Assembly: GCA_020444175.1 (NCBI GenBank) | Contig: JAHLLM010000003.1 | Coordinates: 74,087 to 138,086 of the forward strand | Source: Desulfobulbaceae bacterium | Lineage (GTDB): Bacteria > Desulfobacterota > Desulfobulbia > Desulfobulbales > SURF-16 | Direction of reading: 5' to 3' | DNA length: 64,000 bases | Shown here: in pieces, positions 1-17,306 of the stretch | Layout: the number at the start of each line of letters is the position of its first letter | How positions within the stretch are numbered: position 1 is the first letter of the stretch | Position numbers and translations under genes: made by a program | The notes under the pieces: model-generated | What the model saw: only the letters and a program-made list of their open reading frames with translations | What the model was told of the DNA's origin: nothing | Databases searched by the model: none

Positions 1-96
1 ATAGTGAGCTTATTTGTAGGATTTAAAATAAAAAAATCCGATACGTTCCGAAAATTTGCACGTAAAGGATTTAGCAAAAAAGCACAGGCCTGATCC

Positions 97-2595
97 TTGT
101 TCAATACGGTTAAACAATTTGCCCACCAGCTTATTTCCCCCCAGGGAGCAAGCCGGGCAAAATATGAAATTTTTAAAAATCTCCTTAAGCATGACAGGCG
201 ATGCCATGAACTGCTCGCCGAACTTGAAGAACTCTATTATCACCATGAAAAGGTGGACATCAATGTAATTTCCCGCCTTTTCTCTGACCTTTCATCCTCT
301 GTTTCGGCAATGGTGGCGAGCCTGACGCAACTTGCTCCGGGCTCCTACGTAAACTTGAGGGACTATTATAAAAAATTTGATTTTTATGCACGCTTTGCCC
401 TTTCCCCGCCTGAAATCGATATCTCGCCGCCGTTCACCCTCTCTCTGGACGGTTTTTACCACAACGATCTTCAGGTGGGGGGCAAGGGCTTTCATCTTTG
501 CCAGCTTAAACGGCAACTGGGTCTGCCGGTGCCTCACGGTTTCATTATCTCCACCTCGGCATACAACGCTCTCATTGAATCAAACAAGCTGAGACCACGT
601 ATTTACGATACCCTTGCAACTCTTGATGCAACCTCCTCTTCCTCTTTAAAACAAGCATCCGACAAACTGAGGCAATACGTGCTGTCAGCACACATTCCCG
701 CTGACTTGAAAATAGACATTTTCTCCTCTTTTAAGAACTTACAGGCTGTGGCCTCGTGTCCTTACTTTGCTTTACGCAGCAGCGCAGTCAGCGAAGACTC
801 TCACATTTCCTTTGCAGGTCAATACGAATCCGTTTTGCAGGTCACGGAGGACAAACTGCTGGAGGCTTACAAACAGGTGCTTGCCGGCAAATTTTCACAT
901 CAGGCTCTTTCCTATCGCATCAACAACGGCCTGATCGATGATGCTACTCCAATGGCTGTTCTTGTCCTTGAAATGGTTGATGCGCACAAAAGCGGGGTTA
1001 TGACCTCCCGCGACCCCATGCACAGTGATGATGATGCCATCCTCATCCATTCCGTGAAAGGACTGGGCGAGGCACTGGTGGGAGGCAGGACATCACCGCA
1101 CACAACCATAATCAGAAAGGGAAGTCTCGGAGTTACGGAGGAACATCACTCGTCATTCGAAGAACAAAACGATGATGATGCCCATAACAACCAGCCTTCT
1201 CCCCTTTCATCAGAACAGAACATGCTTCTTGCCGCCTGGGCCAGACAGATTGAAACATTTTATCAGGCACCCCAGGAAATAGAATGGTGTGTAAGCAGGG
1301 AAGGTCAGCTTTTTATCCTGCAAACGAGAGCCTTACTGGTTCAAAAAAAACAGATTCACCTGGAAAGACCGCCTGCTGATCAATTTCAAGTTTTACTTCA
1401 AGGCGGGGAAACAGCTTCCCGGGGCGCGGCCTGTGGTCCGGTATACCATATAAGGAACCAGGACCAGTTGGAGACCGTGCCGAGTGGAGCGATCCTTGTT
1501 ACATCCGTCACACCTCCTTCCTCTGTATCAGTTTTACGGACGATTTCCGGTGTGGTGGCGGAGATGGGAAGCGTAGCTGACCATTTTTCTTCCGTGGCAC
1601 GGGAGTACGGAGTCCCGGTGCTCGTCAAAACAGGAATGGCTTGCCGGAAACTGCCGCAGGAAAAGATCGTGACACTCTGGGCCGATGAAAAAATGATTTA
1701 TGACGGTCATGTCGATTCTCTTCTTGAGACAAGGGCATTGCATTTGGAAGACCAAGACCAGAGCCCCTTCACGCGCGCCCTTAACATGGTAGTGCAATTC
1801 GTTTCTCCGCTCAAGCTTGTCAACCCTGCCGATCCCCTGTTTGTTCCGGAGAGCTGCCGCTCCTTTCATGACATTATCCGCTTTGCCCATGAAAAGGCTG
1901 TACTTGCCATGTTTTCCCAGACCAAAGGAGGCCTGATTCGCAAAGGCGGAGCAAAACCCCTTACATCAAAAGTACCGCTGAGTCTTTTCGTTATAGACGT
2001 TGGAGGCGGTATTGCCCCCCAGGCAAAGGAAAAAAGCAATCTCCAAATAACAGATATTCATTCCAAGCCGCTGCTTGCCGTCTGGAAAGGGATCACAAAT
2101 CAGAGAGTTGACTGGAGCAGGCATGATCATTTTGACTGGAAAACATTTGACGAAATCAACCTGGCCGGAGGCATTGCCAGCAAAAAGGATTCATCATTTG
2201 CAAGTTATGCCATAATTTCAAACGATTACCTCAACTTAAACATCAGATTCGGCTATCATTTCGCCATTCTTGATTCCCTCTGCGGCAAAATTCCGGAAGG
2301 AAATTACATTCTGCTGCGATTTGCCGGGGGTGGCGGGGACTTTACGGGAAGGTCTCTGCGCCTGCGATTCATCCAGTCCATCCTGCAGAAACTTGATTTT
2401 ATCACATATCAAAAAGGAGATTTGCTCGACGCCAGGCTGATGCGCTATGATAAGAAAGTCACTGCTGAAAAACTTGACATGCTGGGCCGTCTGCTCGGGG
2501 CCACCAGACTTATGGATATGGTCCTCAAAGACGAACGGATGGTGGAACGACTTGTGGAAGAATTCATGCAGGGCAGGTATGACTTTTCAGGATAA
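97..2595 (+). CDS. PEP-utilising dikinase-like enzyme (ATP-grasp PPDK_N domain, swivelling phosphohistidine domain, non-canonical C-terminal domain)
   Basis: 832-aa ORF. GGKGFHLCQLKRQLGLPVPHGFIISTSAY resembles the nucleotide-binding motif of pyruvate phosphate/water dikinases. GSVADHFSSVAREYGVPVLV resembles the mobile His domain. The C-terminal ~330 aa is not recognisable to me as the PEP/pyruvate TIM barrel. Confidence 0.7.
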   Translation: MFNTVKQFAHQLISPQGASRAKYEIFKNLLKHDRRCHELLAELEELYYHHEKVDINVISRLFSDLSSSVSAMVASLTQLAPGSYVNLRDYYKKFDFYARFALSPPEIDISPPFTLSLDGFYHNDLQVGGKGFHLCQLKRQLGLPVPHGFIISTSAYNALIESNKLRPRIYDTLATLDATSSSSLKQASDKLRQYVLSAHIPADLKIDIFSSFKNLQAVASCPYFALRSSAVSEDSHISFAGQYESVLQVTEDKLLEAYKQVLAGKFSHQALSYRINNGLIDDATPMAVLVLEMVDAHKSGVMTSRDPMHSDDDAILIHSVKGLGEALVGGRTSPHTTIIRKGSLGVTEEHHSSFEEQNDDDAHNNQPSPLSSEQNMLLAAWARQIETFYQAPQEIEWCVSREGQLFILQTRALLVQKKQIHLERPPADQFQVLLQGGETASRGAACGPVYHIRNQDQLETVPSGAILVTSVTPPSSVSVLRTISGVVAEMGSVADHFSSVAREYGVPVLVKTGMACRKLPQEKIVTLWADEKMIYDGHVDSLLETRALHLEDQDQSPFTRALNMVVQFVSPLKLVNPADPLFVPESCRSFHDIIRFAHEKAVLAMFSQTKGGLIRKGGAKPLTSKVPLSLFVIDVGGGIAPQAKEKSNLQITDIHSKPLLAVWKGITNQRVDWSRHDHFDWKTFDEINLAGGIASKKDSSFASYAIISNDYLNLNIRFGYHFAILDSLCGKIPEGNYILLRFAGGGGDFTGRSLRLRFIQSILQKLDFITYQKGDLLDARLMRYDKKVTAEKLDMLGRLLGATRLMDMVLKDERMVERLVEEFMQGRYDFSG

Positions 2596-2633
2596 TTCCA
2601 TCATATTTTTTATAATTTACTTCAAACACTGCC

Positions 2634-3695
2634 ATGTCATACATACTCACCTGGATAACAGACAGCCTGGCGGTTGGCTATGCGCCCATGTCGTATGCCG
2701 AGCTTGACTCTATCAAAGAGCAGGGCATAGATGCCATCGTCAATCTCTGCGGTGAATTCTGCGACCTCCACGAGATAGAGGAAAAGTCCGGCTTTGAGGT
2801 ATTCTTCCTGCCCATACCGGATGAAAATGCCCCGGATATGGCGGAAATGGAGGAAGGACTGCAATGGCTTGACGAGGCGATTTATCTTGGCAAAAAAGTA
2901 CTGGTCCACTGCCGTCACGGCATAGGCAGAACGGGCACCTTTGTCACCGGCTATCTCCTTCGCCGCGGCATGGGCCTGAAGATGGCGGAAAAAAAACTGA
3001 AAAACACCAGGGCCAACCCCAGCAACTTCAGCCAGTGGTGGATGCTCAGGAAATACGGCAAGAAATCAGGCACCCTGACCATCAGGGAGCCGACACTCGA
3101 AAACCGCAACGTAGTTGACTTAAGTCACTTTTTTGCCGAATACGAAGGGCTGGCGGACACTGTTGAAAAAACAATCACCCAAAGGTTGGGCAATAAAAAA
3201 CACCCGCGTTGCGGCATTGATACCTCGCAAGGTTGTTATCGCTATTTTGAACTGCACCTTATCGAGGCCGTTTATCTGAGCAATAAAATGAACAAGATAT
3301 TATCACTCACGGATAGACAGGCGGCCATTGAACGTGCAGTTGCAGTGACCCGCGCCACCCGTGGAATCGTCGACAACTCATCGGCCGCAACCAAAGAGGA
3401 TCTGGTATCAGAGTACGGACAGCTGAACCAGCTTTGCCCCTTAAACGTCAACGGCTCCTGCATTCTGGCCGATTACCGGCCCATAAGCTGCCGCCTCCAT
3501 GGGTTGTCCGCCGATCTGTATGACATTGAACAAATAGAGCGCATTGTGACATCAATTTCCCGTTCGATTTTTCTGGCCCTGGCAGGTATCTTCCCAGGCG
3601 ACCAGCCCTTTCTGGTCTCAAATGCCGATACGGTTTCCGGCAGATTTGCCCAGGTTTATTTTCACTATCTTCTGTCTCTGAACCAGGAACAATGA
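2634..3695 (+). CDS. Dual-specificity (Cys-based) protein phosphatase domain fused to a YkgJ/UPF0153-like Cys-cluster domain
   Basis: 353-aa ORF. VHCRHGIGRTG is an HCx5R P-loop. The C-terminal CPLNVNGSCILADYRPISCRLHG resembles the second half of the CxxCxxCC zinc/iron-chelating family. It lies 38 nt after the dikinase gene, and its stop overlaps the next start (ATGA at 3692-3695). Confidence 0.65.
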   Translation: MSYILTWITDSLAVGYAPMSYAELDSIKEQGIDAIVNLCGEFCDLHEIEEKSGFEVFFLPIPDENAPDMAEMEEGLQWLDEAIYLGKKVLVHCRHGIGRTGTFVTGYLLRRGMGLKMAEKKLKNTRANPSNFSQWWMLRKYGKKSGTLTIREPTLENRNVVDLSHFFAEYEGLADTVEKTITQRLGNKKHPRCGIDTSQGCYRYFELHLIEAVYLSNKMNKILSLTDRQAAIERAVAVTRATRGIVDNSSAATKEDLVSEYGQLNQLCPLNVNGSCILADYRPISCRLHGLSADLYDIEQIERIVTSISRSIFLALAGIFPGDQPFLVSNADTVSGRFAQVYFHYLLSLNQEQ

Positions 3696-5119
3696 AACAG
3701 CATACCGACCAAAAGCGCCAGCTTGTCATGATAGTTGACGATGAACCAGATATGCTCAACATGCTTCGTCTTGTCGTTACCAAACAATGCGACTGTGATG
3801 TGGAACTGGCCTCATCCGGGCAGATTGCGCTCAACAGGCTTGAAAGCTGCCGTCCCGATGTTATTGTCACGGACATCAAGATGCCGGACCTTGACGGCCT
3901 GACCCTGCTGCAACAGATAAGAAAGTTTGACGGGACCATTTCCGTGATTATCATGACCGGTTACGGAACCATAGAAATGGCAGTGCAGGCTCTGAAAGAC
4001 GGAGCTTATGATTTCCTGCAGAAGCCCTTTGACAAGGAACATATCGTCCGTGTCATAAACAACTGTCTTGAACGCACCCGCCTTTTACGGGACAACCGCT
4101 CTCTCCAGGAGAAGCTGAATACCGTTTCTCCCCCTGGTCCTCTTGGCTTCATTGGCAATTCGCCTCCTCTTCGCCAGGCCCTTGAACTCATTTCCAAGGT
4201 TGCCGATACCGATGTCACTGTTCTTATCCGAGGGGAAAGCGGCACCGGCAAGGAAGGGGCTGCCAGAGCGCTCCACAATTTAAGCACCCGTCGCGATCAA
4301 AAAATGATCACCGTCAACTGCCCGGCCTTACCGGAACAGATCCTGGAAAGCGAACTTTTCGGTTACTGCAAGGGCGCTTTTACCGGGGCTAACAAAGACA
4401 AAAAAGGACTTTTTCTGGAAGCGGATCATTCCACTCTTCTCCTTGACGAGATTGCGGATATCCCTGTATCGATCCAGACAAAACTGCTTCGCGTCCTGCA
4501 GGAAAAAGAGATTCAGCCCCTGGGCCAGAACGAAAGCATCAAGGTTGATGTTCGCGTTGTTGCCTCCACCAACCAGAATCTAGAAGAAAAAATGCTGGCC
4601 GGCGAATTCCGGGAAGATCTCTTTTACCGATTGAACGTGGTCACCGTTACCATGCCTACCTTAAGTGAAATGCATGAAGACATTCCCCTTCTTGTCCACC
4701 ATTTCCTGCGCCGTTTCAGGAAAGAATTTGATCACCCCAAACTATCCATCAACCCTGAAGCAGTCAGCTATCTCCACAACAAGGTCTGGCCGGGAAACGT
4801 TCGCGAGCTGGAGAACAGCATCAAAAGAGCGGTTCTCCTTGAGCCGGGTGACTTAATAACGATGGAAAGCCTCTGTAATCTGAACAACGCCCCCTGCCCC
4901 AAACCAAAATGTCCTGATCCCAGAGATTTTTCCCAAATGCCATACAAAGAGGCAAAAGCAGAGGTTATGAAAATTTTCTCCACCGCCTACCTGAACGACC
5001 TCCTGGTAAGAAACCAAGGCAACGTCACTGCCGCAGCAAAAGAAAGCGGACTTGAAAGGCAGGCCTTCCAGCGCATCATGCGCCGCTACGGCATACGCTC
5101 AACAGACTTCAGAAGTTAA
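3692..5119 (+). CDS. Sigma-54-dependent response regulator (REC + AAA+ + Fis-type HTH, NtrC family)
   Basis: REC with DDEPD...D, Walker A GESGTGKE, GAFTGA loop (KGAFTGA) and a C-terminal HTH (NVTAAAKESGLERQAFQRIMRRYG). Confidence 0.9.
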   Translation: MKQHTDQKRQLVMIVDDEPDMLNMLRLVVTKQCDCDVELASSGQIALNRLESCRPDVIVTDIKMPDLDGLTLLQQIRKFDGTISVIIMTGYGTIEMAVQALKDGAYDFLQKPFDKEHIVRVINNCLERTRLLRDNRSLQEKLNTVSPPGPLGFIGNSPPLRQALELISKVADTDVTVLIRGESGTGKEGAARALHNLSTRRDQKMITVNCPALPEQILESELFGYCKGAFTGANKDKKGLFLEADHSTLLLDEIADIPVSIQTKLLRVLQEKEIQPLGQNESIKVDVRVVASTNQNLEEKMLAGEFREDLFYRLNVVTVTMPTLSEMHEDIPLLVHHFLRRFRKEFDHPKLSINPEAVSYLHNKVWPGNVRELENSIKRAVLLEPGDLITMESLCNLNNAPCPKPKCPDPRDFSQMPYKEAKAEVMKIFSTAYLNDLLVRNQGNVTAAAKESGLERQAFQRIMRRYGIRSTDFRS

Positions 5120-5149: not shown

Positions 5150-5182
5150 CAGACAGGCAGCAGGTCTGTTTTCGGTTTTTTA
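5150..5182 (+). terminator. Candidate rho-independent terminator after the sigma-54 regulator gene
   Basis: The short stem cagac...gtctg is followed by ttttcggtttttt, 31 nt after the stop codon. The stem is only ~5 bp. Confidence 0.4.
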
Positions 5183-5523: not shown

Positions 5524-8163
5524 ATGAGGGGCATAAATCCGAATCCATCACGTTTCAGCAATTCATTCCTTTTTATGGACAAAAACGCCATGCATGCTCG
5601 CAGTTTTCCTGAAAAATTCCGTTATCATCCTATACCATATGTCATGGCCGCTCTGCTTATGGGATTTGTCCTCATTACCGCATACTACTCCTTTGCCGTC
5701 GGAGAACGCATGAGCAGGGAATATTCGCCCCAAATTACTGCCGCCATGAAAGCCAAACAGTATGCCACTACGGCCCATCTCTGGTTTGAAGAGGTTATCA
5801 GCGGAGACCGCACAGAAAGCATTAAAAATGTCCTGGAATTACTGTCTCAGTCAGACTGGTATGCCGGAGTCCTGCTTGAAGGGGGAGAAAACCAGACCGA
5901 AACCTATCTTCCATTGCGAAATCAAACACTAAGACAGAATGTAGAAGAGTTGCGGTCAAAAATTGCATCTTTCCGGGATATCACCACCCAGAGATGGGAA
6001 AACCAGACTATGTCGGGAATCGGTTCAGACATTGATCAGCGTTATGACCTGTTGTTTAAAAACTTTATTGCCCAGGCCGATCGTGTGGAAAACAATCTGC
6101 AGAAAATGATAAAAGAAGATCTGAAAAATTTTCGTTTAAACTCATTTATCCTGTTCATAACAAGTCTTGTCCTGGCAGCTCTCACCTTCTTGCTCTTTAT
6201 AAGACTAGAGAGGCAACGCAAATCCGACTTTATTGAAATCGCCACTGCCCGTGACAAACTTGACACAAACAGAAAACGACTGCACACGACCATGCAGTGC
6301 ATGGGTGACGCCCTCATTGCCACCGATACCCTTGGAAAAGTGACCTACATGAATCCGGTGGCTGTTTCACTCACAGGCTGGGGACAGGAGGAGGCAATCG
6401 GCCAGGATGTCCATAAAATTTTTAACATCATCAACCAACATACAAGAAAACCAGTAACAAACCCTGTTCAGGAAGTCATCCGCAAAAAAATTGTCGTCGG
6501 CCTTGCCAACCACACCGTGCTTATAGCAAAAGACGGCAGTGAATATCCTATTGCCGACAGCGGCGCCCCTATCATTGATCACAGGGGAGAATTTGTGGGA
6601 GTTGTTCTGGTATTCCATGATGTAACCGAGCAATATCAGGCCCAGGAAGCAACAGCACGGAGCGAGACGCGCTACCGGGCTCTTTTTAACGGCATGAACA
6701 GTGGAGTGTATATTCTGGAAACAAATGACAACGCCCACACCTTTACCTTTATCGATATCAACAAATCGGCGGAAAGAATTGAACAGGTAACACGAGAAAA
6801 CGTTATTGGCAAAGATATCCTGCAAATTTTCCCAGGGACAAAGGATTGCGAACTGTTTAATGCCCTAACCGGAGTATGGCAAAGTGGTCAGCCAAAACAT
6901 CTTCCTGCCGTGCACTACCAGGATGACAGAATTTCAGGATGGCGGGAAATACTGATCTACAAACTGCCCACCAATGAACTGGTGGTGCTGTCTGAAGACC
7001 TGACAGAACGAAAACGAATCGAACAGGATCTGCGTCAGGCCCAGAAAATGGAGGCAATAGGAACTCTTGCCGGCGGCATTGCCCATGATTTCAATAACAT
7101 GCTCAATGTCATCATCGGCAATGCAGAACTTGCAGATCTGGACATCCCGGACGACAGCCCTCTTCAGGAAAATATCGATGGTATTCTTCATGCCGGTATG
7201 CGGGCTGCCAACCTTGTTAAACAGATTCTTGCCTTCAGCAGACAGGAATCCAGAGATTTCAAACCCCTGCAGCTGCAGCCAGTGGTAAAAGAAGCGATGC
7301 GCCTGTTACGAGGTGTCCTGCCAACCACCATTGAAATAAAAAATGATATTGAACCTGGGGTGCAAAATATTCTCGCCAATGTTACCCAGATCCATCAGGT
7401 TATAATGAACATCTGCACCAATGCCTCCCACGCCATGCGGGAAAACGGCGGCATACTCACGGTTTCCCTGCGGGAGATTTCTCTTGATGCCACGCAAATG
7501 AAGCTCCACAAGCTTCCTCCTGGACGATATATGCAGCTCAAAATAGCCGACACGGGCTGCGGCATGAATAAGGCGACCCTTGAGCACATCTTTGAACCTT
7601 ATTTCACCACAAAGGGAATAGGCGAAGGGACAGGACTGGGGCTGGCAACCGCCCATGGCATTGTCAAAAAGCACCAGGGGAATATTGAAGTGGAAAGCGA
7701 GCCGGGCAAAGGATCAACTTTTACCATCTCCTTCCCGATCATTGCTGAAGAAAAAACACGTAAGCATGACAACAAACAAGACGGGTCCCTTGCCAGAATA
7801 GAAGGACATGTCATGCTTGTCGATGATGAAGAAACCCTTACCAGACTGGGAACAAAAATATTGGAAAGATTAGGATGTACGGTTACGGCATTTACCAGCA
7901 GCACTGAAGCTCTGAAGCACTTTACAGATCACACTTCAGACTATCAGGCCATTCTCACCGACCAGACCATGCCGAACCTGACCGGATTACAACTTGCAAA
8001 ATCCATTCATAAAATTAACCCTGGAATTCCCATCATTCTCTGTACCGGTTACAGTGATTTAGTTGACGAAAAACTCGCCAGGGACTCAGGGCTTCAGGAA
8101 TTTCTGATGAAACCCTTATCCATGAAAGAGCTTTCCGAAAAGCTGGGCAAACTGCTTTCATAA
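5524..8163 (+). CDS. Hybrid sensor histidine kinase (2 TM + periplasmic domain, PAS x2, HisKA, HATPase_c, C-terminal REC)
   Basis: H-box GGIAHDFNNML, G-boxes DTGCGM and GTGLGLA, C-terminal receiver (LVDDEE...TDQTMP). The start is uncertain, with in-frame Met at codons 18 and 23. Confidence 0.9.
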   Translation: MRGINPNPSRFSNSFLFMDKNAMHARSFPEKFRYHPIPYVMAALLMGFVLITAYYSFAVGERMSREYSPQITAAMKAKQYATTAHLWFEEVISGDRTESIKNVLELLSQSDWYAGVLLEGGENQTETYLPLRNQTLRQNVEELRSKIASFRDITTQRWENQTMSGIGSDIDQRYDLLFKNFIAQADRVENNLQKMIKEDLKNFRLNSFILFITSLVLAALTFLLFIRLERQRKSDFIEIATARDKLDTNRKRLHTTMQCMGDALIATDTLGKVTYMNPVAVSLTGWGQEEAIGQDVHKIFNIINQHTRKPVTNPVQEVIRKKIVVGLANHTVLIAKDGSEYPIADSGAPIIDHRGEFVGVVLVFHDVTEQYQAQEATARSETRYRALFNGMNSGVYILETNDNAHTFTFIDINKSAERIEQVTRENVIGKDILQIFPGTKDCELFNALTGVWQSGQPKHLPAVHYQDDRISGWREILIYKLPTNELVVLSEDLTERKRIEQDLRQAQKMEAIGTLAGGIAHDFNNMLNVIIGNAELADLDIPDDSPLQENIDGILHAGMRAANLVKQILAFSRQESRDFKPLQLQPVVKEAMRLLRGVLPTTIEIKNDIEPGVQNILANVTQIHQVIMNICTNASHAMRENGGILTVSLREISLDATQMKLHKLPPGRYMQLKIADTGCGMNKATLEHIFEPYFTTKGIGEGTGLGLATAHGIVKKHQGNIEVESEPGKGSTFTISFPIIAEEKTRKHDNKQDGSLARIEGHVMLVDDEETLTRLGTKILERLGCTVTAFTSSTEALKHFTDHTSDYQAILTDQTMPNLTGLQLAKSIHKINPGIPIILCTGYSDLVDEKLARDSGLQEFLMKPLSMKELSEKLGKLLS

Positions 8164-8247: not shown

Positions 8248-8934
8248 TTAATGCGTCATGCACTCGCCATCTTTGACGACAAGAGTGCGTCCGGCATACC
8301 CGCAATTTTCAGCATTATGCGTTACCATAATAATGGTTAAACCTTCCTCCTCATTAAGCTGCTGAAGGAGGCGCATAATTTCATCAGCTGTTTCGCTGTC
8401 AAGGTTGCCGGTGGGCTCATCGGCAAGTAAGATTGGAGGCCGATTGACAATTGCCCTGGCAATGGCGACTCTCTCCTGCTCTCCTCCGGAAAGCTGGTCA
8501 GGCAGTCTATCGGCTTTTGCCAGCAACCCGACCTTGGCAAGAACCTCCCTGGCCATCCTGTTCTGTTCTTTGGCGGCAATACCGGTTATAGCCATGGGCA
8601 TCTTGACGTTTTCCAGAACAGTGAGATAGGAAATAAGCTGAAAGGACTGAAAAATTATGCCTATATATTCACTGCGAAAATCCGCTCTCTGCTCACTGTT
8701 CAGGGCGTACACATCCAGGGTATCCACCAGAACCTCTCCCCTGCTTGGATGATTGAGTCCGCCAAGAATGGAAAGCAGTGTGCTTTTCCCTGAACCTGAT
8801 TGCCCCATGATGCCCACGAAATCACCGTCGTCCACATAAAAATCCATCTTGCGGATAGCATCCACTTTGCTGTCGGCTATCTGGTATTCTTTTCCTATAT
8901 CCCGAATTTCAATAAGGTGTTCCACTGTTTTCAT
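8248..8934 (-). CDS. ABC transporter ATP-binding protein (MacB/LolD-like)
   Basis: Walker [10 protein letters not shown], signature LSGGEQERV, Walker B ILLADEP. Start moved to MKTVEH because AGGAGA sits 5 nt upstream. Confidence 0.9.
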
Positions 8935-9007
8935 ACCATTCTCCTGCTGAGTCAGACATTCGTTGCTCAGTCCTGAGACCATAGACCTTAGTCCTCGGTC
9001 ATTGGAT

Positions 9008-10165
9008 CTACAATGCCCTTAAGGCAACACTTGGATCAAGATTACTTCCTTTCTGGGCAGGGTAGAGACTTGCCAGCAGGCTGAGGGAAATGGACAGCAA
9101 GACGGCAACCAATGCCAAGGAAAGGTTAATCCCTGCAAAACTTCCTCCGGGAGTCACAAGAGGAAGAACGGCCCAGGCAATTATGTTACCCCCTGCAACA
9201 CCCAAAATTCCGCCGAAAAATCCGACCACAATGGCTTCAAGGAGAATGATCTGCATGACATGCCCTTTTCGAAAGCCAATAGCCCGAAAAATGCCAATCT
9301 CCCGTGTCCGTTCATTGACCGCGCCCATCATGGTAACGAAAACAAGTAAAGAACCGATAAAAACGACAAGACTGGCAATGCCGAAACTGAACGCCTTGAA
9401 GAGCTCAATGGACTGCATCTTTGACATGACCGCCTGCTTTAATGCCGTCACCTTGGCGTCGGGAAATTTCTCGGCAATCTGCAGAACCATCTCGGTAATC
9501 GGGCAGTCACGGCAGAAAGCGGCGATTTCAACCATGGAAACTTTTCCTTCCTTGCCCAGCACCTTTTGCATGGCGTGAAGATCGCCAATCACAATACTGT
9601 CTTCAGTCGCCCCGGTGGGCTGCAGGATTGCGGCAACCAGAAAGGTTTCATTTGCAACCTTTAAAGAATCTCCGACGTTTAAATCCAGAGATCGCGCCGC
9701 CTCGGAACCGACAATAACATCCCCTGGACTTGCAGGAGAATTCCCCATGAGGTGCCACCATGTCTTTAACTGGAGTTCAACTTCAAAATTCACCCCCATG
9801 AACAGCACGTCACGCCCCTGGACCTGTGCGGCACCGAGCACCTTAGGTGCCACTGCCCCAAGATTGTTATTGTTCTCTATTTCACGGATACGCTCAAGAT
9901 CCTCCTCCAGAAACTCGTTCACCTCATAGCTGACACCGCCAACAGTAATGCCGCCGTAGCTCAAAGCAAGATTTTCACTTCTGGGCACCATGACGATATT
10001 AGCCCCAAAACGGTCTAACCTGTCTTCGATATCCCTGGTCATACTTTCCGTAATGGACAGCAGGGTGACAATGGTGGCAATGCCGATAAGCAGACCCATG
10101 ACGAGGAAGGTCATTTTGGCCTTTCGGCGCCTGAGATTATTAAAGGAAATATTATAGAGCTTCAA
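9008..10165 (-). CDS. ABC transporter permease, FtsX/MacB-type
   Basis: 385 aa. N-terminal TM, large periplasmic domain, then three C-terminal TM helices with the typical REIGIFRAIGF motif. Confidence 0.85.
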   Translation of the reverse strand: MKLYNISFNNLRRRKAKMTFLVMGLLIGIATIVTLLSITESMTRDIEDRLDRFGANIVMVPRSENLALSYGGITVGGVSYEVNEFLEEDLERIREIENNNNLGAVAPKVLGAAQVQGRDVLFMGVNFEVELQLKTWWHLMGNSPASPGDVIVGSEAARSLDLNVGDSLKVANETFLVAAILQPTGATEDSIVIGDLHAMQKVLGKEGKVSMVEIAAFCRDCPITEMVLQIAEKFPDAKVTALKQAVMSKMQSIELFKAFSFGIASLVVFIGSLLVFVTMMGAVNERTREIGIFRAIGFRKGHVMQIILLEAIVVGFFGGILGVAGGNIIAWAVLPLVTPGGSFAGINLSLALVAVLLSISLSLLASLYPAQKGSNLDPSVALRAL

Positions 10166-10589
10166 ATTCGGCCTCCTTTTTCAACGTCTGCATGCGCTCA
10201 CTATGACCAACCTGATTGAGCAGCACGGCCGAAACTCCCTGGCTATGGAAGAAAGTGGAGAATTTCTGCGGGTCAACTTCTGAATGATTAAAAGTAATGA
10301 TAATTCGTGATCCCTGCCCGTCAACGGCTACGTTACGGACACCCTCATACTGACGGAGCTGGGCAAGGCCGGCTTCAGACAATGAGGACTCCACCGGCAA
10401 TTTATAAATAACATCCTTAAGGTGACGCATTTGAAAAAAAGCAATGGACCTTGGAATGATAACCACGGATAGTCCAAAGACAATTGCAAGGGAGACAAAT
10501 GCCGCCAGGGCACCAAAACTAATGGAACGCTTTTTCACGCCCAGCACTTTTTCTCTTTTATCCCTGTATTTTTCAAAATCATAGGCCAT
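10152..10589 (-). CDS. Single-pass membrane protein of unknown function (operon partner of the FtsX/ABC pair)
   Basis: ORF trimmed to MAYDFEKY. One TM (FGALAAFVSLAIVFGLSVVII). Its stop overlaps the permease start by 14 nt. Confidence 0.5.
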   Translation of the reverse strand: MAYDFEKYRDKREKVLGVKKRSISFGALAAFVSLAIVFGLSVVIIPRSIAFFQMRHLKDVIYKLPVESSLSEAGLAQLRQYEGVRNVAVDGQGSRIIITFNHSEVDPQKFSTFFHSQGVSAVLLNQVGHSERMQTLKKEAEFEAL

Positions 10590-10680
10590 GTCTGCACCAT
10601 ATATTAAATTTGAGTGAGGGGTGAGGTGCGAAGAGAGAAGAATGAGCAACTTAGACTCTCACTCATCGTTTGACGACCTC

Positions 10681-11169
10681 CTACCTCTTATACTTGCAAT
10701 ACCAGCTGTTCTTGTTGATATCCGCCATGGCAATAACAAGTTTGTCTCCCTTGACAGTTCTTTCAAGGGGAGCGGGATTACAGCCACCGCGAATGACATT
10801 TATTTTGGTTGAATGAAATTTCTGACCACAGTTCAGGCAGACCATGAAATCTCCATCCTGCAGGTAGCCTTTACCTGCCTTGTAACAGACGTCACAGGCA
10901 TCAATGGCTGCTCTGATGACCCTGTCCCTGCTCATGAGGGTAAAAAATGTGACCAGGGTTCCATCACCTGCTTTCACATTAAAATGATGGGCTTTACCGT
11001 CAGTAATATTTGCCAGAGGTATTTCAAGCTGCCCGTTTACCGGGGTGATACTTTCGGTTTTCGGTCCCCAGAACATCAATTTATCCCCAAAAAAAGATGC
11101 CATGCCGCTTCCGGCAAATAATGCCAATCCCAAAACGACTGAAAGTATACCAAATCCTATTCGTTTCAC
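10681..11169 (-). CDS. DUF2318-like secreted/membrane Cys-rich protein (putative metal-binding)
   Basis: Signal/TM segment plus CDVCYKAGKGY...MVCLNCGQKF...GGCNP, the Cys pattern I associate with DUF2318 proteins. These are encoded next to FtsX-type ABC systems in iron-uptake loci. Confidence 0.6.
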   Translation of the reverse strand: MKRIGFGILSVVLGLALFAGSGMASFFGDKLMFWGPKTESITPVNGQLEIPLANITDGKAHHFNVKAGDGTLVTFFTLMSRDRVIRAAIDACDVCYKAGKGYLQDGDFMVCLNCGQKFHSTKINVIRGGCNPAPLERTVKGDKLVIAMADINKNSWYCKYKR

Positions 11170-11417
11170 TTTTGCCCTCCTTTGTTGAGGTTTTGTCCTT
11201 TTGTATTTTTGGTGCTGAAAATTTTTCTAAAAAGCTCCTTCCAGGAAGAGGCTGTCGCTCCGCATTGACTGGTCTCACAACCGATGCAGGCAAAATCCTT
11301 GTCACCTTCAGGATCTTTTTTCCCAGCATCGTCGGCAACAACGAGCTGAATATGCATAAAAAAAACAATAATTACACAACTGATCGGGATTAAAACTCTT
11401 CGTTGCTTGCGATTCAT
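11166..11417 (-). CDS. Small exported Cys-containing protein (83 aa)
   Basis: Start set at MNRKQRR, which has a GGAGG/GAGAGG SD. TM/signal segment, then ACIGCETSQCG. Its stop overlaps the DUF2318 start by 4 nt. Confidence 0.5.
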   Translation of the reverse strand: MNRKQRRVLIPISCVIIVFFMHIQLVVADDAGKKDPEGDKDFACIGCETSQCGATASSWKELFRKIFSTKNTKGQNLNKGGQK

Positions 11418-11473
11418 CCTCTCGCCTCCACACACATGAGAAAGCACCAACATTTTTATTTGATTACTTAACT

Positions 11474-11490
11474 TAGCAACCAGCGTGCCA
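11474..11490 (-). promoter_or_regulatory. Sigma-54 (-24/-12) promoter for the minus-strand small-Cys/DUF2318/FtsX-ABC operon
   Basis: The minus strand reads TGGCACGCTGGTTGCTA, a GG-N10-GC match to TGGCACG-N4-TTGCW. The -12 GC is ~59 nt upstream of the ATG at 11417. Confidence 0.7.
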
Positions 11491-12244: not shown

Positions 12245-13312
12245 ATGGACCCAGCTACCTTGATACCGGTTCCTGATGCTTTACCTGTCCACTGGTTTTG
12301 GTTCCAGTTACTGCTCACGGTGACGACGTTTCTCCACCTTGTCGCCATGAATATTGTGCTTGGTTCCAGCGGGCTGGCCTTTATTTCAACTTTCTCAACC
12401 GACTCAAACTCCTTGAATCTCGGCAAGGAAATCGGGCACAAACTGCCGTTCGTGCTGGCCTTTACCATTAACTTCGGTGTCGCCCCCCTTCTCTTTCTGC
12501 AAACCCTTTACGGTCAGTTCTTTTATACAAGCACCGTGCTCATGGCCTCCCTTTGGCTGTCAATTATAGGGATGCTTATTGTGACTTACTATGCTGCCTA
12601 TATTTTTCATCTCCGCTTTGACTCCCTTGCCCGTTTCCGCGCATTTTTTATCGGTCTTGCAGTTGTGCTCCTCCTTATTATCTCCTTTTTCTTTACAAAC
12701 AATATCAGCTTGATGCAGATGCCCTCGAGCTGGACGAGTTATTTTTCCAGTCCCAACGGCTGGCTTGTCAACTGGGGCGACATAACCCTTTTGCCTCGCT
12801 ACCTGCACTTTATCGTCTCCGGTTTTGCCGTGGGCAGTCTTGCCGTTGCCCTGTTATATGAGTTCAAAAAACGAAGGGGCGATGTGGCGGCCGATGCCTG
12901 GATCAAGCTCGGCTGCAAATGGTTCACTATCGGCACGGTTATAAATTTCGGCATTGGCTTCTGGTTTCTCGGCACCCTGCCCGGTTTTGCCCACGACGTA
13001 ACAACATCAGCGGGCAAACTCTTTACCATAGTGCTTTACGGTTCAGTGGCTGCCGGAGCCGTATCCGTTATCAAGGCCATGAGCAACAGGGTTGTCCCCG
13101 CGGCAATCTGGACCATGGCAACTGTATTTCTTATGGTCATAGCCCGCGACATGGTGCGGATATCCTATCTGCACCCATACCTCTCCCTGCCTGAACTTCC
13201 AGTAAAAACACAGTACTCGCCCTTTATTCTGTTTCTGATTTTCTTTGCAGGAATTGGCGCTCTTGTCTGGTGGATGCTGAAAACTGCCTGGTGTGCAAAG
13301 GAGGTGCAATAA
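12245..13312 (+). CDS. Polytopic membrane protein, likely partner subunit of the downstream CydA-like protein
   Basis: Start set at MDPATL, with AGGAGG 6 nt upstream. About 9-10 hydrophobic helices. Its stop overlaps the next start by 1 nt (TAATG). Confidence 0.55.
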   Translation: MDPATLIPVPDALPVHWFWFQLLLTVTTFLHLVAMNIVLGSSGLAFISTFSTDSNSLNLGKEIGHKLPFVLAFTINFGVAPLLFLQTLYGQFFYTSTVLMASLWLSIIGMLIVTYYAAYIFHLRFDSLARFRAFFIGLAVVLLLIISFFFTNNISLMQMPSSWTSYFSSPNGWLVNWGDITLLPRYLHFIVSGFAVGSLAVALLYEFKKRRGDVAADAWIKLGCKWFTIGTVINFGIGFWFLGTLPGFAHDVTTSAGKLFTIVLYGSVAAGAVSVIKAMSNRVVPAAIWTMATVFLMVIARDMVRISYLHPYLSLPELPVKTQYSPFILFLIFFAGIGALVWWMLKTAWCAKEVQ

Positions 13313-14604
13313 TGAATTATCCTGTCTGGCATCTTGATTTTGCAGGGGGAGGCCTGCCCATCGCCATCATGGCCATTATCCATGTTTACATCGCCCACTT
13401 TGCCGTGGGTGGCGGACTTTTTCTCGTACTCACCGAACACAAGGGACTCCGGGACAAGAGCCCAGCAATCCTTGATTATGTCAAAAAACACACCAAGTTT
13501 TTCCTCTTGCTGACCATGGTGCTTGGCAGCCTGACCGGAGTCGGCATCTGGTTCACCATCTCGGTCCTGAACCCGGCTGCAACTTCAGTCATGATCCACA
13601 CCTTTGTCTTTGCCTGGGGAGTTGAGTGGCTCTTTTTTGTGGCGGAAATTGTCTCGCTTTTTATCTACTATTACACCTTTGACAAACTCGATTCCCGCAC
13701 CCATCTCATGATTGGCTGGATTTATTTCGGAGCAGCCTGGATGTCGCTTTTTGTGATTAACGGCATTATCGACTTCATGCTGACTCCAGGGAACTGGACA
13801 GCAAACAGCAGTTTCTGGAGCGCTTTTTTTAATCCGACATTCTGGCCTGCCCTCTTTTTCCGCACCTTCCTGGCTATTATGATTGCCGGACTCTTCGGCT
13901 TTGTAACGGCCTCAGCCTTAAAAGATGAAAAACTGCGAATCTCCATGCAACGCTTTTCTGCCAGCTGGCTGCTTGTCCCCTTTATCCTCTTTATCGGCTC
14001 AGCCTGGTGGTACCGCGCCGCTCTGCCTCCACATGTTGAAGAACTCATTTTCCAGAGAATGCCGGCCATGAAGCCTTTTATTTCCTCTTTTGTTGTTTTT
14101 TCCCCGCTTCTCATCCTGGGTGGCCTCCTCATGGCCATCAAAATACCGTCAGGCGTCAGCCGGTCACTTGCCGGACTCATGCTTGTTATCGGATTGTTGT
14201 ATATGGGTACTTTCGAGTTCATCCGCGAAGGAGGCAGGAGGCCATACATTATTTATGATCATATGTATTCCACTGCCATGTTCAAGGATGATGTTGCCAA
14301 AGCCCGGACAAATGGCATTCTTGAGAGCGCAAAATGGGTTGATCGCAAAGCCCTTGCAACTGCAGACACCAGCCGCAGGGGCCAGGAGGTATTCCGCCTG
14401 CTCTGTGTGTCCTGCCACTCCATTGACGGTCCTTTAAATGATATAAAAAAGATTGCCGCCAATCTGACCCGCGCCGACCTGGAGCTGGCAACAACCTTAA
14501 TGGGCAAACAGCTTGCCTTTATGCCGCCTTTTGCCGGCAGCCAGGCGGAAAAAGATGATGTTCTTTATTATATCCACAGGACATTGCTGAACAAGCCGGA
14601 ATAA
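13312..14604 (+). CDS. Cytochrome bd superfamily (CydA-like) membrane protein fused to a C-terminal mono-haem cytochrome c domain
   Basis: By eye the N-terminal 170 aa aligns to E. coli CydA helices 1-4: HVYIAHFAVGGG vs YHFLFVPLTLG, KFFLLLTMVLGSLTGVG vs KLFGINFALGVATGL, EWLFFVAEIVSLF vs EGLMAFFLESTFV. The C-terminus carries CVSCH (CxxCH). AAGGAGG RBS upstream. Confidence 0.65.
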   Translation: MNYPVWHLDFAGGGLPIAIMAIIHVYIAHFAVGGGLFLVLTEHKGLRDKSPAILDYVKKHTKFFLLLTMVLGSLTGVGIWFTISVLNPAATSVMIHTFVFAWGVEWLFFVAEIVSLFIYYYTFDKLDSRTHLMIGWIYFGAAWMSLFVINGIIDFMLTPGNWTANSSFWSAFFNPTFWPALFFRTFLAIMIAGLFGFVTASALKDEKLRISMQRFSASWLLVPFILFIGSAWWYRAALPPHVEELIFQRMPAMKPFISSFVVFSPLLILGGLLMAIKIPSGVSRSLAGLMLVIGLLYMGTFEFIREGGRRPYIIYDHMYSTAMFKDDVAKARTNGILESAKWVDRKALATADTSRRGQEVFRLLCVSCHSIDGPLNDIKKIAANLTRADLELATTLMGKQLAFMPPFAGSQAEKDDVLYYIHRTLLNKPE

Positions 14605-14882: not shown

Positions 14883-17306
14883 ATGCATGTGTATTTACGG
14901 CTCATAATTATCTTTTTCATTCCCCTGTTTGCCTTTCCTGTTTTTGCCGCTCCAAAAGGGATTCATCCCCTAATCAAAGTCGCTGTTTTCCCTCTGGAAC
15001 CTCTTAATTTTACTGATCAGAACGGGGAAGCAAAAGGACTCAATCCTGATATCATCCGCGAGATAGCGCGAGAAGAAGAATGGACTGTTGAATTTGTTCC
15101 CGGCAGCTGGGCAGAAGGACTCAGCCGTCTGCAGAGTGAAGAAATCGACCTCATGACCACCATTGCCTACTCCCCGGAACGGGCAGAGAAGATGGACTTC
15201 AGCCATGAACCAGTGACCGACATCTGGGGGCAGATTTTCACCCAGCCCGGTAAAAACATCAATACCATTCTTGATCTGAACGGGCGCCATGTCGCCATTA
15301 TGAGTCAAGATATCAATGGTCAAAACTTTATTAAAACAGCAGAAAAATTCGGCGTTGTCTGCAAAACCATCGAATTTCCCACCCATAATGCTATCTTTGA
15401 GGCCATTAAGGATGGAAAAGTCATCGCCGGTGTTGCCCCCCAGCATTTCGGACTGCGTCATGCAGCAGATTATAATCTGGTGGCAACTTCTATTCAGTTT
15501 TCTCCATTTTCAATCTACTTTGCCACCAAAAAGGGCAAAGGCCATGATATTCTCGAACACATCGACTCCCATCTTTCCAGATGGAAACAGGACAGGAATT
15601 CGTTTTATTATAAACGGCTTTCTTACTGGATGGGAGGCAAGGAATTTGAAAAACAGATTATCCCAACCTGGCTTTTAATTACATTTAGTCTCGCGCTCGC
15701 ACTCACGGCTCTGCTGTTTTTTATCAACAGAGCCCTCAATATCAAGGTACATAATCGAACAAAAGAAATTCTTTTACGGGAAAAGCAATACAGGGACCTG
15801 GTTGAGAGCGCCAACACTATTATCCTCCGATGGGACAGGGAGTGTCGTGTTCTTTTCATGAACAAATTCGGCCTGGATCTTTTTGGCTATTCGTTTGAAG
15901 AAGTCATCGGGCATCATGTCACCCACACGATCGTTCCTGCCCAAGAGTCCACTGGTAAAAGCCTCAAATTCATGATGGACGACATCTTGAAAAATCCAGA
16001 AAAATACATCCTGAACGAGAATGAGAATATCTGTAAAGACGGACGGCGTGTTTTTATCCAGTGGAGCAACAGGGTTATATATGATGATGATGGAAATTTT
16101 CAGGAAATGCTGAGTGTGGGCACGGACATAACTGACAGAAAAAGGCTTGAAACAGAACTTTTCCAGGCCCAGAAAATGGAGTCAATGGGAACACTTGCCG
16201 GGGGTGTTGCCCATGATTTTAACAATATTCTCTCGATTATCTTTGGTTATGTGGAACTCTCAAAAATCCAGAAAGAAGACCCGGACAAAGTTGCAGAAAA
16301 TCTGGAGGAAATCCTTCGGGCTGCGCAAAGAGCCCAGGCGCTGGTAAGGCAAATCCTTACTTTCAGTCGAAAAAGCGATTCAGCGAAACAGATCCTGCAG
16401 GTCTCTATTCTTGTCAAAGAAGTGCTCAAGATGCTCCACTCAACCCTGCCGGTAACCATAGAAATAAAACAAGATATTGCCTCTCACAGCACAGTCTTCG
16501 GTGATCCTACCCAGATTCACCAAGTGATCATGAATCTTTGCACCAACGCCTACCATGCCATGGAGGAAACAGGTGGCACGCTGACTGTTTCATTAAAGGA
16601 CGTTGTGATTCAGAAAGGCGATATTTCGTCCTCAGAAATAAGCATGCTTCAAGGGGAGTACATTAAGATTACAATACAGGATACAGGTTCTGGAATTAAT
16701 CCCAAAGACATACAAAAGATTTTTGAACCTTATTTCACCACCAAAGAACTCGGAAAGGGAACCGGAATGGGCCTTGCCGTGGTTCATGGTATCGTCCGCG
16801 CACATAACGGCCAAATCAAAATTGATTCTATCCCTGGAGAAGGCACAGCTTTCCATGTTTTTTTACCAATCGACAGAAATGAAGATCACTCACCCAATTC
16901 CCAAATAATAAAAAAAGAAGTCAGGGGCAACAATGAGAAGATACTTCTTGTCGATGACGAAGCCAAAATTGCCGAATCCCAGGCAAAGGTTCTGCAAGAA
17001 TACGGTTATAAAGTAGAGGTTTTTACTGATTCGACAGAAGCCCTCAAAAGGTTTAAAGAAAATCCTGACCAGTATGATATTCTTATCACCGACATGACAA
17101 TGCCCGGACTTACAGGCGTCCAGCTTTCCCAAGAAATTTTCTTACTCAAACCGGGATTTCCGATAATCATGTGGAGCGGCTTCAACAAACTCATGAACAA
17201 GGAAAAAGCAATGGAGCTCGGCATTTCGGAATATCTTCACAAACCTGTTTTAAAAGAGACACTCCTCGGCGCAGTGAGTAAGGTTCTTGTTCAAAAGACA
17301 CAATGA
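14883..17306 (+). CDS. Hybrid sensor histidine kinase with periplasmic solute-binding (SBP_bac_3-like) domain, PAS, HisKA, HATPase_c, REC
   Basis: Signal peptide plus ~230-aa periplasmic domain resembling amino-acid-binding proteins, TM, PAS, H-box [19 protein letters not shown]-terminal REC (LVDDE...TDMTMP). Confidence 0.9.

Follow-up and report, generated by a model that had tools for sequence, protein, structure and literature searches.

Near the start of the 64,000-nucleotide (nt) stretch of Desulfobulbaceae DNA analysed here (the window), we found a gene for a dikinase that has the phosphotransfer core of phosphoenolpyruvate (PEP) synthase without its pyruvate-binding barrel, directly followed by the gene for a Cys-based phosphatase. 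Positions are those of the window unless a locus (L) or protein (P) identifier is given. The dikinase gene (97–2595, plus strand, 832 amino acids (aa), TTG start), the phosphatase gene (2634–3695, plus strand, 353 aa) and the gene for a sigma-54-dependent regulator (3692–5119, plus strand, 475 aa) lie one behind the other. The dikinase belongs to a large, mis-annotated family, whose members have a presumed acceptor domain of unassigned structure and a Cys phosphatase as partner. Our best-supported statement is that dikinase and phosphatase form a functional kinase–phosphatase couple, because their adjacency is conserved, they are fused in some lineages, and the partner can be replaced by a non-homologous phosphatase. 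As to what the couple does, we give about an even chance to an ATP-driven module for reversible phosphorylation, in which a mark is written and erased on an acceptor other than pyruvate and which is wired to two-component signalling. Proteins identical to those of the window are present in public data from a Desulfobulbaceae metagenome-assembled genome, where the dikinase is recorded as ‘hypothetical protein KQH63_02335’.

The original prediction, made from the sequence of the window, had assigned ATP-grasp and swivelling-His domains to the dikinase, and both were recovered by Pfam. The ATP-grasp nucleotide-binding domain (PPDK_N, PF01326, E 2.2e-70) covers residues 126–419 (472–1353, plus strand) and is followed by the swivelling phospho-histidine domain (the PEP-utilizers mobile domain, PF00391, E 1.1e-12) at residues 462–528 (1480–1680, plus strand). 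The catalytic His496 (codon 1582–1584) lies within G-S-x-A-D-H-F-S-S-V-A-R-E, and this domain aligns with the His domain of PpsA in the structure 8a8e. The best relatives in the PDB are the PEP synthases 8a8e and 9dae, with the match ending near query residue 546. We aligned 22 full-length homologs of 42–63% identity and found the GGK, RSSAxxED, SFAGQ, (E/D)IEW and LQxR motifs to be invariant or nearly so and His496 to be invariant. Because of this conservation of the nucleotide motifs and of His496, the dikinase should bind ATP and autophosphorylate. One position departs from the known enzymes: the dikinase has Ala where PpsA and PPDK have the Thr that precedes the catalytic His. This Thr is the target of the regulatory protein of PpsA and PPDK. 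Ahead of the ATP-grasp domain there is a further domain, which the original account of the gene did not contain. It spans residues 1–125 (97–471, plus strand), matches no Pfam or NCBIfam model, and its profile found no match among PDB sequences. It has no known relatives and is specific to the family, throughout which it is conserved, with P15, Y23, F26, D33, H37, E44 and D54 invariant.

The part of the dikinase that follows the His domain is not the pyruvate/PEP-binding barrel of PpsA. The same had been claimed for the C-terminal ~330 aa; the absence of the barrel stands, and the region concerned is shorter, with about 285 aa (residues 548–832; 1738–2592, plus strand). No match to PEP-utilizers_C (PF02896) was found in the dikinase, and residues 548–832 match no Pfam or NCBIfam model. 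The NCBIfam models for PpsA align to it only over model positions 17–473 of 798, and their scores remain below half of the family cut-offs (276 bits against 598 for NF005057, 263 against 739.75 for TIGR01418). A profile of the C-terminal domain had no relative among PDB sequences, with a best E of 0.35. A first AlphaFold2 (AF2) model of this domain, built from 19 sequences, reached a pLDDT of 72 and gave insignificant Foldseek matches. With 149 diverse members as input, the second model is confident (pLDDT 88.1, pTM 0.82) and consists of two long helices followed by a six-to-eight-stranded antiparallel β-meander packed with helices, without a (β/α)8 barrel. Foldseek searches of the PDB with the second model returned nothing significant (best E 0.086, TM-score at most 0.23), and no PpsA, PPDK or Enzyme I barrel was retrieved. 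In the predicted structure, the domain has a fold that matches no known one.

An ordinary gluconeogenic PEP synthase with a merely divergent barrel would agree with the many database records that label members of this family ‘pyruvate, water dikinase’, and the N-terminal two-thirds of the protein is indeed closest to genuine PpsA. We rejected this explanation, as no barrel was found by Pfam, NCBIfam, profile search of the PDB or AlphaFold modelling; both the sequence and the predicted structure refute it, and its probability is close to nil. Judged by its domains, the enzyme is a PpsA-type dikinase that descends from PpsA/PPDK and yet is not a PpsA, since it lacks the barrel and falls short of the family score cut-offs. 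It shares with PpsA (EC 2.7.9.2) and PPDK the order of ATP-grasp domain and swivelling His domain together with the nucleotide motifs and the catalytic His, and differs from them by the 285-aa domain in place of the barrel PF02896, the added 125-aa N-terminal domain, the Ala before the His and the Cys phosphatase as partner. Because the TIM barrel is absent, a phosphoryl acceptor other than pyruvate is implied, in line with the original prediction.

The C-terminal domain is as conserved as the catalytic domains. Its conserved motifs are CRSxHDIIRFxHE, HFDW, RFGYHF, RFAGGGG and GRLLGATRLMDM, and six polar residues (D592, R595, H598, H721, R755 and D807) are invariant in the 149 diverse members. 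This set of Asp, Arg and His residues looks to us more like a pocket for phosphoryl transfer than like a surface for docking, and we presume the domain to be the acceptor-binding and catalytic one. An exhaustive search with a hidden Markov model among 1.84 billion cluster representatives (clusters at 50% identity) yielded 1406 proteins with the domain. In every full-length member scanned it comes after PPDK_N and the His domain. Apparent stand-alone C-terminal domain proteins of 260–280 aa were rejected, as their genes are truncated at contig ends.

The second gene encodes a fusion of a phosphatase and a Cys-rich domain. Residues 1–155 (2634–3098, plus strand) are a Cys-based dual-specificity phosphatase (DSP) domain, which over residues 22–143 scores above the cut-offs of both DSPc (54.6 bits, cut-off 33.5) and Tc-R-P (61.2 bits, cut-off 27). 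Its HCx5R(T) loop reads VHCRHGIGRTGT and holds Cys93 (codon 2910–2912) and Arg99; the general acid is Asp63. Across 21 homologs there is no variation at D63, H92, C93, R99 and T100, in the P-loop C-R-H-G-I-G-R or at an additional pair of Cys, C39 and C43. By its P-loop, general-acid Asp and score the domain belongs to the Cys-based DSPs (PF00782 superfamily), and from these residues we judge that it is catalytically intact. The best solved relatives, found for residues 8–138, are DSP-type protein-tyrosine phosphatases (PTPs) of the archaeal type, with ShufPTP (9e9l) and 5z59 closest. The domain has the fold, the HCx5R(S/T) loop and the general-acid Asp of these prokaryotic enzymes (Tk-PTP 5z59 of Thermococcus, SsoPTP 2i6j, ShufPTP 9e9l; Pfam Tc-R-P/PTP-SAK). 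Unlike them, it is fused to 200 aa with five Cys, carries the C39/C43 pair and is linked to a dikinase gene.

The fused domain (residues 156–353; 3099–3692, plus strand) contains five Cys that are invariant in the alignment of homologs: C193, C201, C268, C276 and C286. The original prediction had described it as a UPF0153-like Cys cluster. The fusion of a DSP to a five-Cys domain is confirmed; the likeness to UPF0153 is weak. Its arrangement CP-L-x4-5-C…RP-x2-CR recalls the YkgJ family (UPF0153, PF03692), from which it has the second half-motif CP(L)x4-5C…RPxxCR, and some homologs also keep CGx5-6CC. In contrast to YkgJ, the first motif is down to two Cys, and a long helical insert separates the halves. 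The window phosphatase itself has no match to PF03692, which was matched weakly in 6 of the 21 homologs (best E 0.018), and JGI labels several of the homologs ‘protein-tyrosine phosphatase/Fe-S-cluster containing protein’. A search with the Cys domain by itself, limited by its word index and uninformative for that reason, gave eight matches, all to the same DSP fusion except one 140-aa fragment. We take the weak likeness to YkgJ as a lead and propose that the domain is of the metal-binding type.

The pairing of the two genes was analysed across species. Among 185,579 species, each scanned with one genome, 376 have a relative of the dikinase, and all neighbourhood counts given here cover the loci of the best 80 of these 376 relatives. 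Almost all 80 are from Desulfobacterota (Desulfobulbales, Desulfobacterales, Desulfatiglandales and others). The phosphatase gene lies immediately downstream of the dikinase gene and on the same strand in 71 of the 80 loci, which bears out the expected co-occurrence of dikinase and DSP. Of the nine other loci, four offer under 250 nt of sequence downstream; once these are set aside, 71 of the 76 informative loci show the pair. The Cys domain is present in 59 of the 71 partner phosphatases, and the other 12 are bare DSPs of 150 aa. In two lineages the dikinase and the phosphatase are fused into a single polypeptide. One fusion, P0174 (1252 aa, Syntrophobacteraceae), stands for 12 near-identical sequences and is not an assembly artefact, because its NCBI Syntrophobacteraceae member occurs on 21 contigs; the other, P0200 (1205 aa), stands for four sequences.

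A sister subfamily of 1050–1085 aa (P0203, P0206, P0263; L081, L083–L086), found in Desulfonatronum and Thermodesulfovibrionales, has an additional C-terminal region of about 200 aa with sub-threshold matches to ConA-like lectins (GH59_C lectin, 26.3 bits against a cut-off of 27, and also Laminin_G_3). At one of its loci (L081), the dikinase gene starts 1 nt past the end of a gene for an unrelated Cys phosphatase of the LMWPc family (low-molecular-weight PTP, LMW-PTP), and at another (L086) a DSP gene overlaps the dikinase gene downstream. Chromate-transporter/ChrB genes lie near two of four sister-clade loci.

The neighbouring open reading frames (ORFs) of the 80 loci were clustered into families, and representatives were annotated. 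The gene neighbourhood is conserved and rich in signalling genes. One family of 119-aa stand-alone receivers is present at 48 of the 80 loci, and the family of its kinase at 43. Where the flanks reach 3 kb or more on each side, as they do at 41 loci, a receiver-domain gene is nearby in 35 cases. At 22 loci a convergent receiver gene lies downstream of the phosphatase gene, at most a few genes away. An ortholog of the sigma-54 regulator directly follows the phosphatase gene in 23 loci, all of a Desulfobulbales-type layout to which the window belongs as well. This layout occupies a single strand. It begins with a histidine kinase, the 119-aa receiver, a PhsA-like molybdo-enzyme and a DmsB/TtrB-like ferredoxin, and continues with a GAF-GAF-PAS-HisKA protein, a TauE/SafE-like protein of 560–590 aa, an EMC3-like protein, the dikinase, the phosphatase and the sigma-54 regulator. 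The PhsA-like enzyme scores 536 bits with thiosulfate reductase PhsA, which is below the cut-off, and looks cytoplasmic. The GAF-GAF-PAS-HisKA protein has an H-box and no HATPase_c domain, and the TauE/SafE-like protein carries a large N-terminal extension. Examples of these upstream genes are found at L012 3744–5492, L037 1221–3395, L062 4486–4950 and L052 5449–7221.

The Desulfobacterales-type layout consists of the dikinase–phosphatase unit with receiver and kinase convergent on the opposite strand, where the receiver gene often overlaps the 3′ end of the phosphatase gene by a few bases; some of these loci add a TtrS/PhnD-like binding protein. A Syntrophobacteraceae locus (L082, 1–5998) carries on one strand a PhnD/TtrS-like binding protein, an sCache-HAMP-PAS histidine kinase, a 121-aa receiver and the dikinase::phosphatase fusion. 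Further upstream in L082 are genes for YeeE/YedE (Sulf_transp), TusA, a Se/S-carrier protein and a Carb_kinase-like protein, a context that resembles thiosulfate uptake. The genes of a sulfur-oxyanion context seen across the loci are those for the PhsA-like molybdo-enzyme, the TtrS/PhnD-like binding protein, TauE and YeeE–TusA.

Because a stand-alone, CheY-like receiver with its histidine kinase, the sigma-54 regulator and the TauE-like and PhsA-like proteins recur as neighbours, we infer a regulatory role of the pair. In the module that we propose, ATP would bind to the ATP-grasp domain and His496 would become (pyro)phosphorylated and take the β-phosphoryl group, as in the chemistry of the superfamily. 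The His domain would then swivel to the C-terminal domain and phosphorylate a bound acceptor that cannot be pyruvate. The partner CX5R phosphatase would remove this phosphate, and the two enzymes would act as a write/erase pair. By its genomic context, the couple would be an effector or modulator, thus a signal-processing part, of a two-component circuit whose probable signal is an oxyanion in the periplasm, most likely one of sulfur. Lacking an output domain, the stand-alone receiver needs a protein target, and the obvious candidate is the dikinase with its unique N-terminal domain. The pair would then stand outside central carbon or glycogen metabolism. The original prediction had offered a phospho-switch that feeds the regulators as an alternative to a glucan function. 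This fits the data better than glucan does, with receiver genes flanking 35 of the 41 loci; its sigma-54 part is narrower, as the regulator is co-located in only about 23–31 of 80 loci.

Several points weigh against a signalling module. The evidence for a regulatory role is the gene neighbourhood, the sigma-54 regulator is not universal in it, and a degree of fortuitous adjacency is to be expected, since two-component genes abound in Desulfobacterota genomes; that the same receiver and kinase families keep recurring speaks against chance. Some dikinases lack a phosphatase nearby: none was found among the neighbours in two sister-clade loci (L083, L084), and in a Desulfobulbus-like clade (L052, L054, L058, L061, L062) the dikinase has no adjacent phosphatase. 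A gene for a PilZ protein, which binds cyclic di-GMP, follows the dikinase in at least three loci of that clade (L052 10730–11134, L061 4125–4763, L058 2782–3210). To our knowledge, every PpsA-type dikinase characterised so far uses a small molecule or a glucan as acceptor and none uses a protein, and a metabolic role of the pair is quite possible. As a separate observation, an MlaE/ABC pair comes after the PilZ gene in the Desulfobulbus-like clade.

The main rival is such a metabolic role, namely a pathway for the activation of a small molecule or oxyanion, which we regard as possible though unlikely. Here the acceptor of the dikinase would be small, for instance an oxyanion (of sulfur or otherwise), a compound with an aryl-OH group or a metabolite derived from a nucleotide. 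The CX5R enzyme would carry out follow-up chemistry on the phosphorylated product, while the regulators would merely control expression. The phosphatase would serve for hydrolysis or proofreading, or its Cys would attack the product with reduction, following the logic of ArsC or of APS reductase. Non-protein acceptors are the rule among the known relatives (PpsA, PPDK, rifampicin phosphotransferase, PigC, phenylphosphate synthase and GWD), and the invariant Asp/Arg/His set of the C-terminal domain resembles an active site. Sulfur-oxyanion genes (PhsA-like with ferredoxin, TauE-like, TtrS/PhnD-like, YeeE–TusA) lie nearby, and the carriers seen are sulfate- or sulfur-metabolising lineages. The partner, whether DSP or LMWPc, has an oxyanion-binding P-loop fold, the LMWPc family includes arsenate reductases, and the phosphatase adds the invariant C39/C43 pair and the five-Cys domain. 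However, sulfur genes are present at only about one third of the loci, and the Desulfobacterales-type loci hold the dikinase–phosphatase unit and a two-component system only. In addition, 12 of the 71 partner phosphatases are without the Cys domain, and a kinase and a phosphatase in one operon would run a futile cycle unless the phosphatase does other chemistry. Less probable again is that the dikinase is a new bacterial protein kinase or phospho-donor, whose charged His passes the phosphate to a signalling protein and whose mark the DSP or LMW-PTP erases. Candidate acceptors would be the adjacent receiver, the HisKA-only GAF-PAS protein, or a Tyr or Ser residue on a regulator.

The phosphatase could instead regulate the dikinase itself, not by acting on its product but by stripping an inhibitory or activating phosphate from its phospho-His or from an autophosphorylated residue, like the regulatory protein of PPDK and PpsA, which is a dedicated phospho-regulator that acts beside the catalytic His. 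Tight pairing and fusion do put both active sites into one complex, and the replacement of the Thr before the His by Ala means that a different control mechanism would be needed. We nevertheless consider this improbable, as hydrolysis of phospho-His is not known for Cys-based DSPs, no conserved Ser, Thr or Tyr regulatory site was identified, some clades manage without the phosphatase, and the need for an elaborate and conserved C-terminal domain is left unexplained. Still less credit can be given to the suggestion with which the original prediction began, a bacterial analogue of plant GWD with SEX4 or laforin, in which the dikinase would phosphorylate glycogen or another polysaccharide and the DSP would remove the phosphate for turnover. 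Dikinase and DSP are the same pairing of enzyme classes as GWD/PWD with SEX4/LSF2/laforin, where a His-swivel dikinase is likewise matched by a DSP that reverses its mark. Its main support comes from the sister clade, where the dikinase has its sub-threshold lectin-like extension and one locus adjoins genes for phosphoglucomutase and a GH46-like protein. The window moreover encodes an α-glucan phosphorylase, GlgP/maltodextrin-phosphorylase-like (52540–54669, minus strand), which is real by its Pfam domains DUF3417 and Phosphorylase; it lies about 47 kb away and on the other strand. Against a glucan function, Pfam finds no carbohydrate-binding module (CBM) in either the dikinase or the phosphatase, be it CBM45, CBM20 or CBM48, and the acceptor domain is unrelated to that of the plant enzymes. 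The domain order of GWD is CBM, His, ATP-grasp, whereas the window protein has the opposite, PpsA-like order of ATP-grasp, His and C-terminal domain. Glucan phosphatases carry the P-loop signature CzAGYGR, and the window protein has CRHGIGR. GWD/PWD transfer phosphate to the C6 and C3 hydroxyls of α-glucan, and the gene context lends no support to such a reaction. No homolog of the window’s phosphorylase occurs in the 80 related neighbourhoods, and no glycogen or starch enzymes were seen among their recurrent families; the operon or fusion stands among two-component genes instead. An anti-phage defence or polymorphic toxin function, prompted by the Pfam name ‘polymorphic toxin DSP’, was also tried and rejected, as no PADLOC defence-system model matched the dikinase or the phosphatase and synteny is stable across 80 species.

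Acceptor switching has precedent among PpsA-type dikinases. Rifampicin phosphotransferase (RPH) and the prodigiosin ligases PigC/RedH are likewise derived from PpsA, have a similar ATP-grasp domain and exchanged the barrel for a new acceptor-binding domain. Their substrate domain lies between the ATP-grasp domain and a C-terminal His domain, whereas the window protein has its His domain in the middle and the novel domain at the C-terminus. The dikinase scores far below the cut-offs of both models (RPH 191 against 999 bits, PigC 181 against 1300), with only the ATP-grasp part matched, and no RPH chain is among the 50 Foldseek matches listed for the C-terminal domain. A comparison can also be drawn with Enzyme I of the phosphotransferase system (PTS) and EI-Ntr (PtsP), in which a mobile phospho-His domain of the same family PF00391 relays phosphate in a regulatory chain; cross-talk with two-component systems is established for EI-Ntr. 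Enzyme I differs in that it is charged by PEP through a TIM barrel and hands the phosphate to HPr or NPr, whereas the dikinase has an ATP-grasp domain; among the neighbour families that recur at the 80 loci, none was seen to be HPr-like.

PpsA-type dikinases are a small superfamily, in which each known exchange of the acceptor domain gave a distinct biochemical function. The known exchanges serve PEP synthesis, starch phosphorylation, rifampicin resistance, prodiginine ligation and phenol activation. Our literature searches found no paper on the present family, Pfam and NCBIfam hold no model for either its N- or its C-terminal domain, and the names ‘pyruvate, water dikinase’ and ‘PEP synthase’ are routinely and wrongly given to its members. 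As the pyruvate site is absent, metabolic reconstructions that treat the family as PpsA in Desulfobacterota are in error. The carriers of the module dominate marine sulfur cycling, and the pairing or fusion beside receiver, kinase and sigma-54 genes defines a write/erase module that can be tested. Cultured carriers include Desulfosediminicola flagellatus IMCC35005 (L015) and Desulfopila sp. IMCC35006 (L005). Finding the acceptor would uncover a phosphorylated metabolite not seen before or else a new form of bacterial signalling, and would assign a function to the C-terminal domain. Should the acceptor be a signalling protein, sulfate-reducing bacteria would have an ATP-grasp-driven branch of two-component or PTS-like signalling.

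The three genes of the window are tightly packed, exactly as the original prediction had described. The dikinase gene stops with TAA at 2593–2595, 38 nt before the ATG of the phosphatase gene at 2634, and the phosphatase and regulator genes share the ATGA at 3692–3695 in the overlap ‘aacaATGAaac’. The operon has at least four genes, because a further gene ends 3 nt before the dikinase start. Only its 3′ end falls into the window (1–93, plus strand); the complete gene, at 96–722 of a Logan contig with identical genes (L087), encodes a 208-aa membrane protein with three transmembrane segments. This protein is weakly similar to EMC3/TMCO1 (YidC-like), with a Pfam EMC3_TMCO1 match of E 4e-4 below the cut-off. 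The window thus holds the distal part of the operon, the first gene being cut by the window edge. The membrane-protein gene is translationally close-coupled to the dikinase gene, and at 17 loci the dikinase gene is immediately preceded by a homolog of it (family fam9 or fam14).

The third gene (3692–5119, plus strand) encodes an NtrC-type sigma-54-dependent response regulator with a receiver (PF00072, residues 12–122), an AAA+ domain (Sigma54_activat, PF00158, residues 154–319) that contains GAFTGA, an AAA lid (PF25601) and HTH_8 (PF02954, residues 433–466). In NCBIfam it is AtoC/NtrC-like, yet its scores do not reach the equivalog cut-offs set for named regulators, AtoC and NtrC among them. 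A terminator-like hairpin (5151–5171, plus strand) with a T-run to 5181 starts 32 nt past the regulator stop and probably marks the end of the operon; as the number of hairpins with T-runs in the region is not above chance, it is its position that is suggestive. A hybrid histidine kinase of the domain order PAS-HisKA-HATPase_c-receiver (5524–8163, plus strand, by Pfam) begins 404 nt downstream of the regulator. Because of this gap and the hairpin, it is probably on a separate transcript.

In the related loci, no consistent sigma-54 promoter was found ahead of the dikinase operon or the TauE genes, and two isolated perfect sites occur, in L049 and L053. In the window, a perfect sigma-54 −24/−12 consensus (TGGCACGCTGGTTGCT) lies at 11475–11490 on the minus strand, in the intergenic region ahead of a minus-strand operon. 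This operon encodes a 95-aa ORF (11166–11453), an FtrD-like membrane Fe-S protein (PF10080; 10681–11169), a 165-aa ORF (10152–10649), a MacB/FtsX-type permease (9008–10165) and an ABC ATPase (8248–8982), and it is a candidate target of the regulator at 3692–5119. Further downstream on the plus strand, a 444-aa ORF (13270–14604) combines an N-terminal part like subunit I of cytochrome bd with a C-terminal cytochrome c domain of the cbb3 type. Next comes a second hybrid histidine kinase (14883–17306, plus strand), which has a periplasmic SBP_bac_3 sensor domain.

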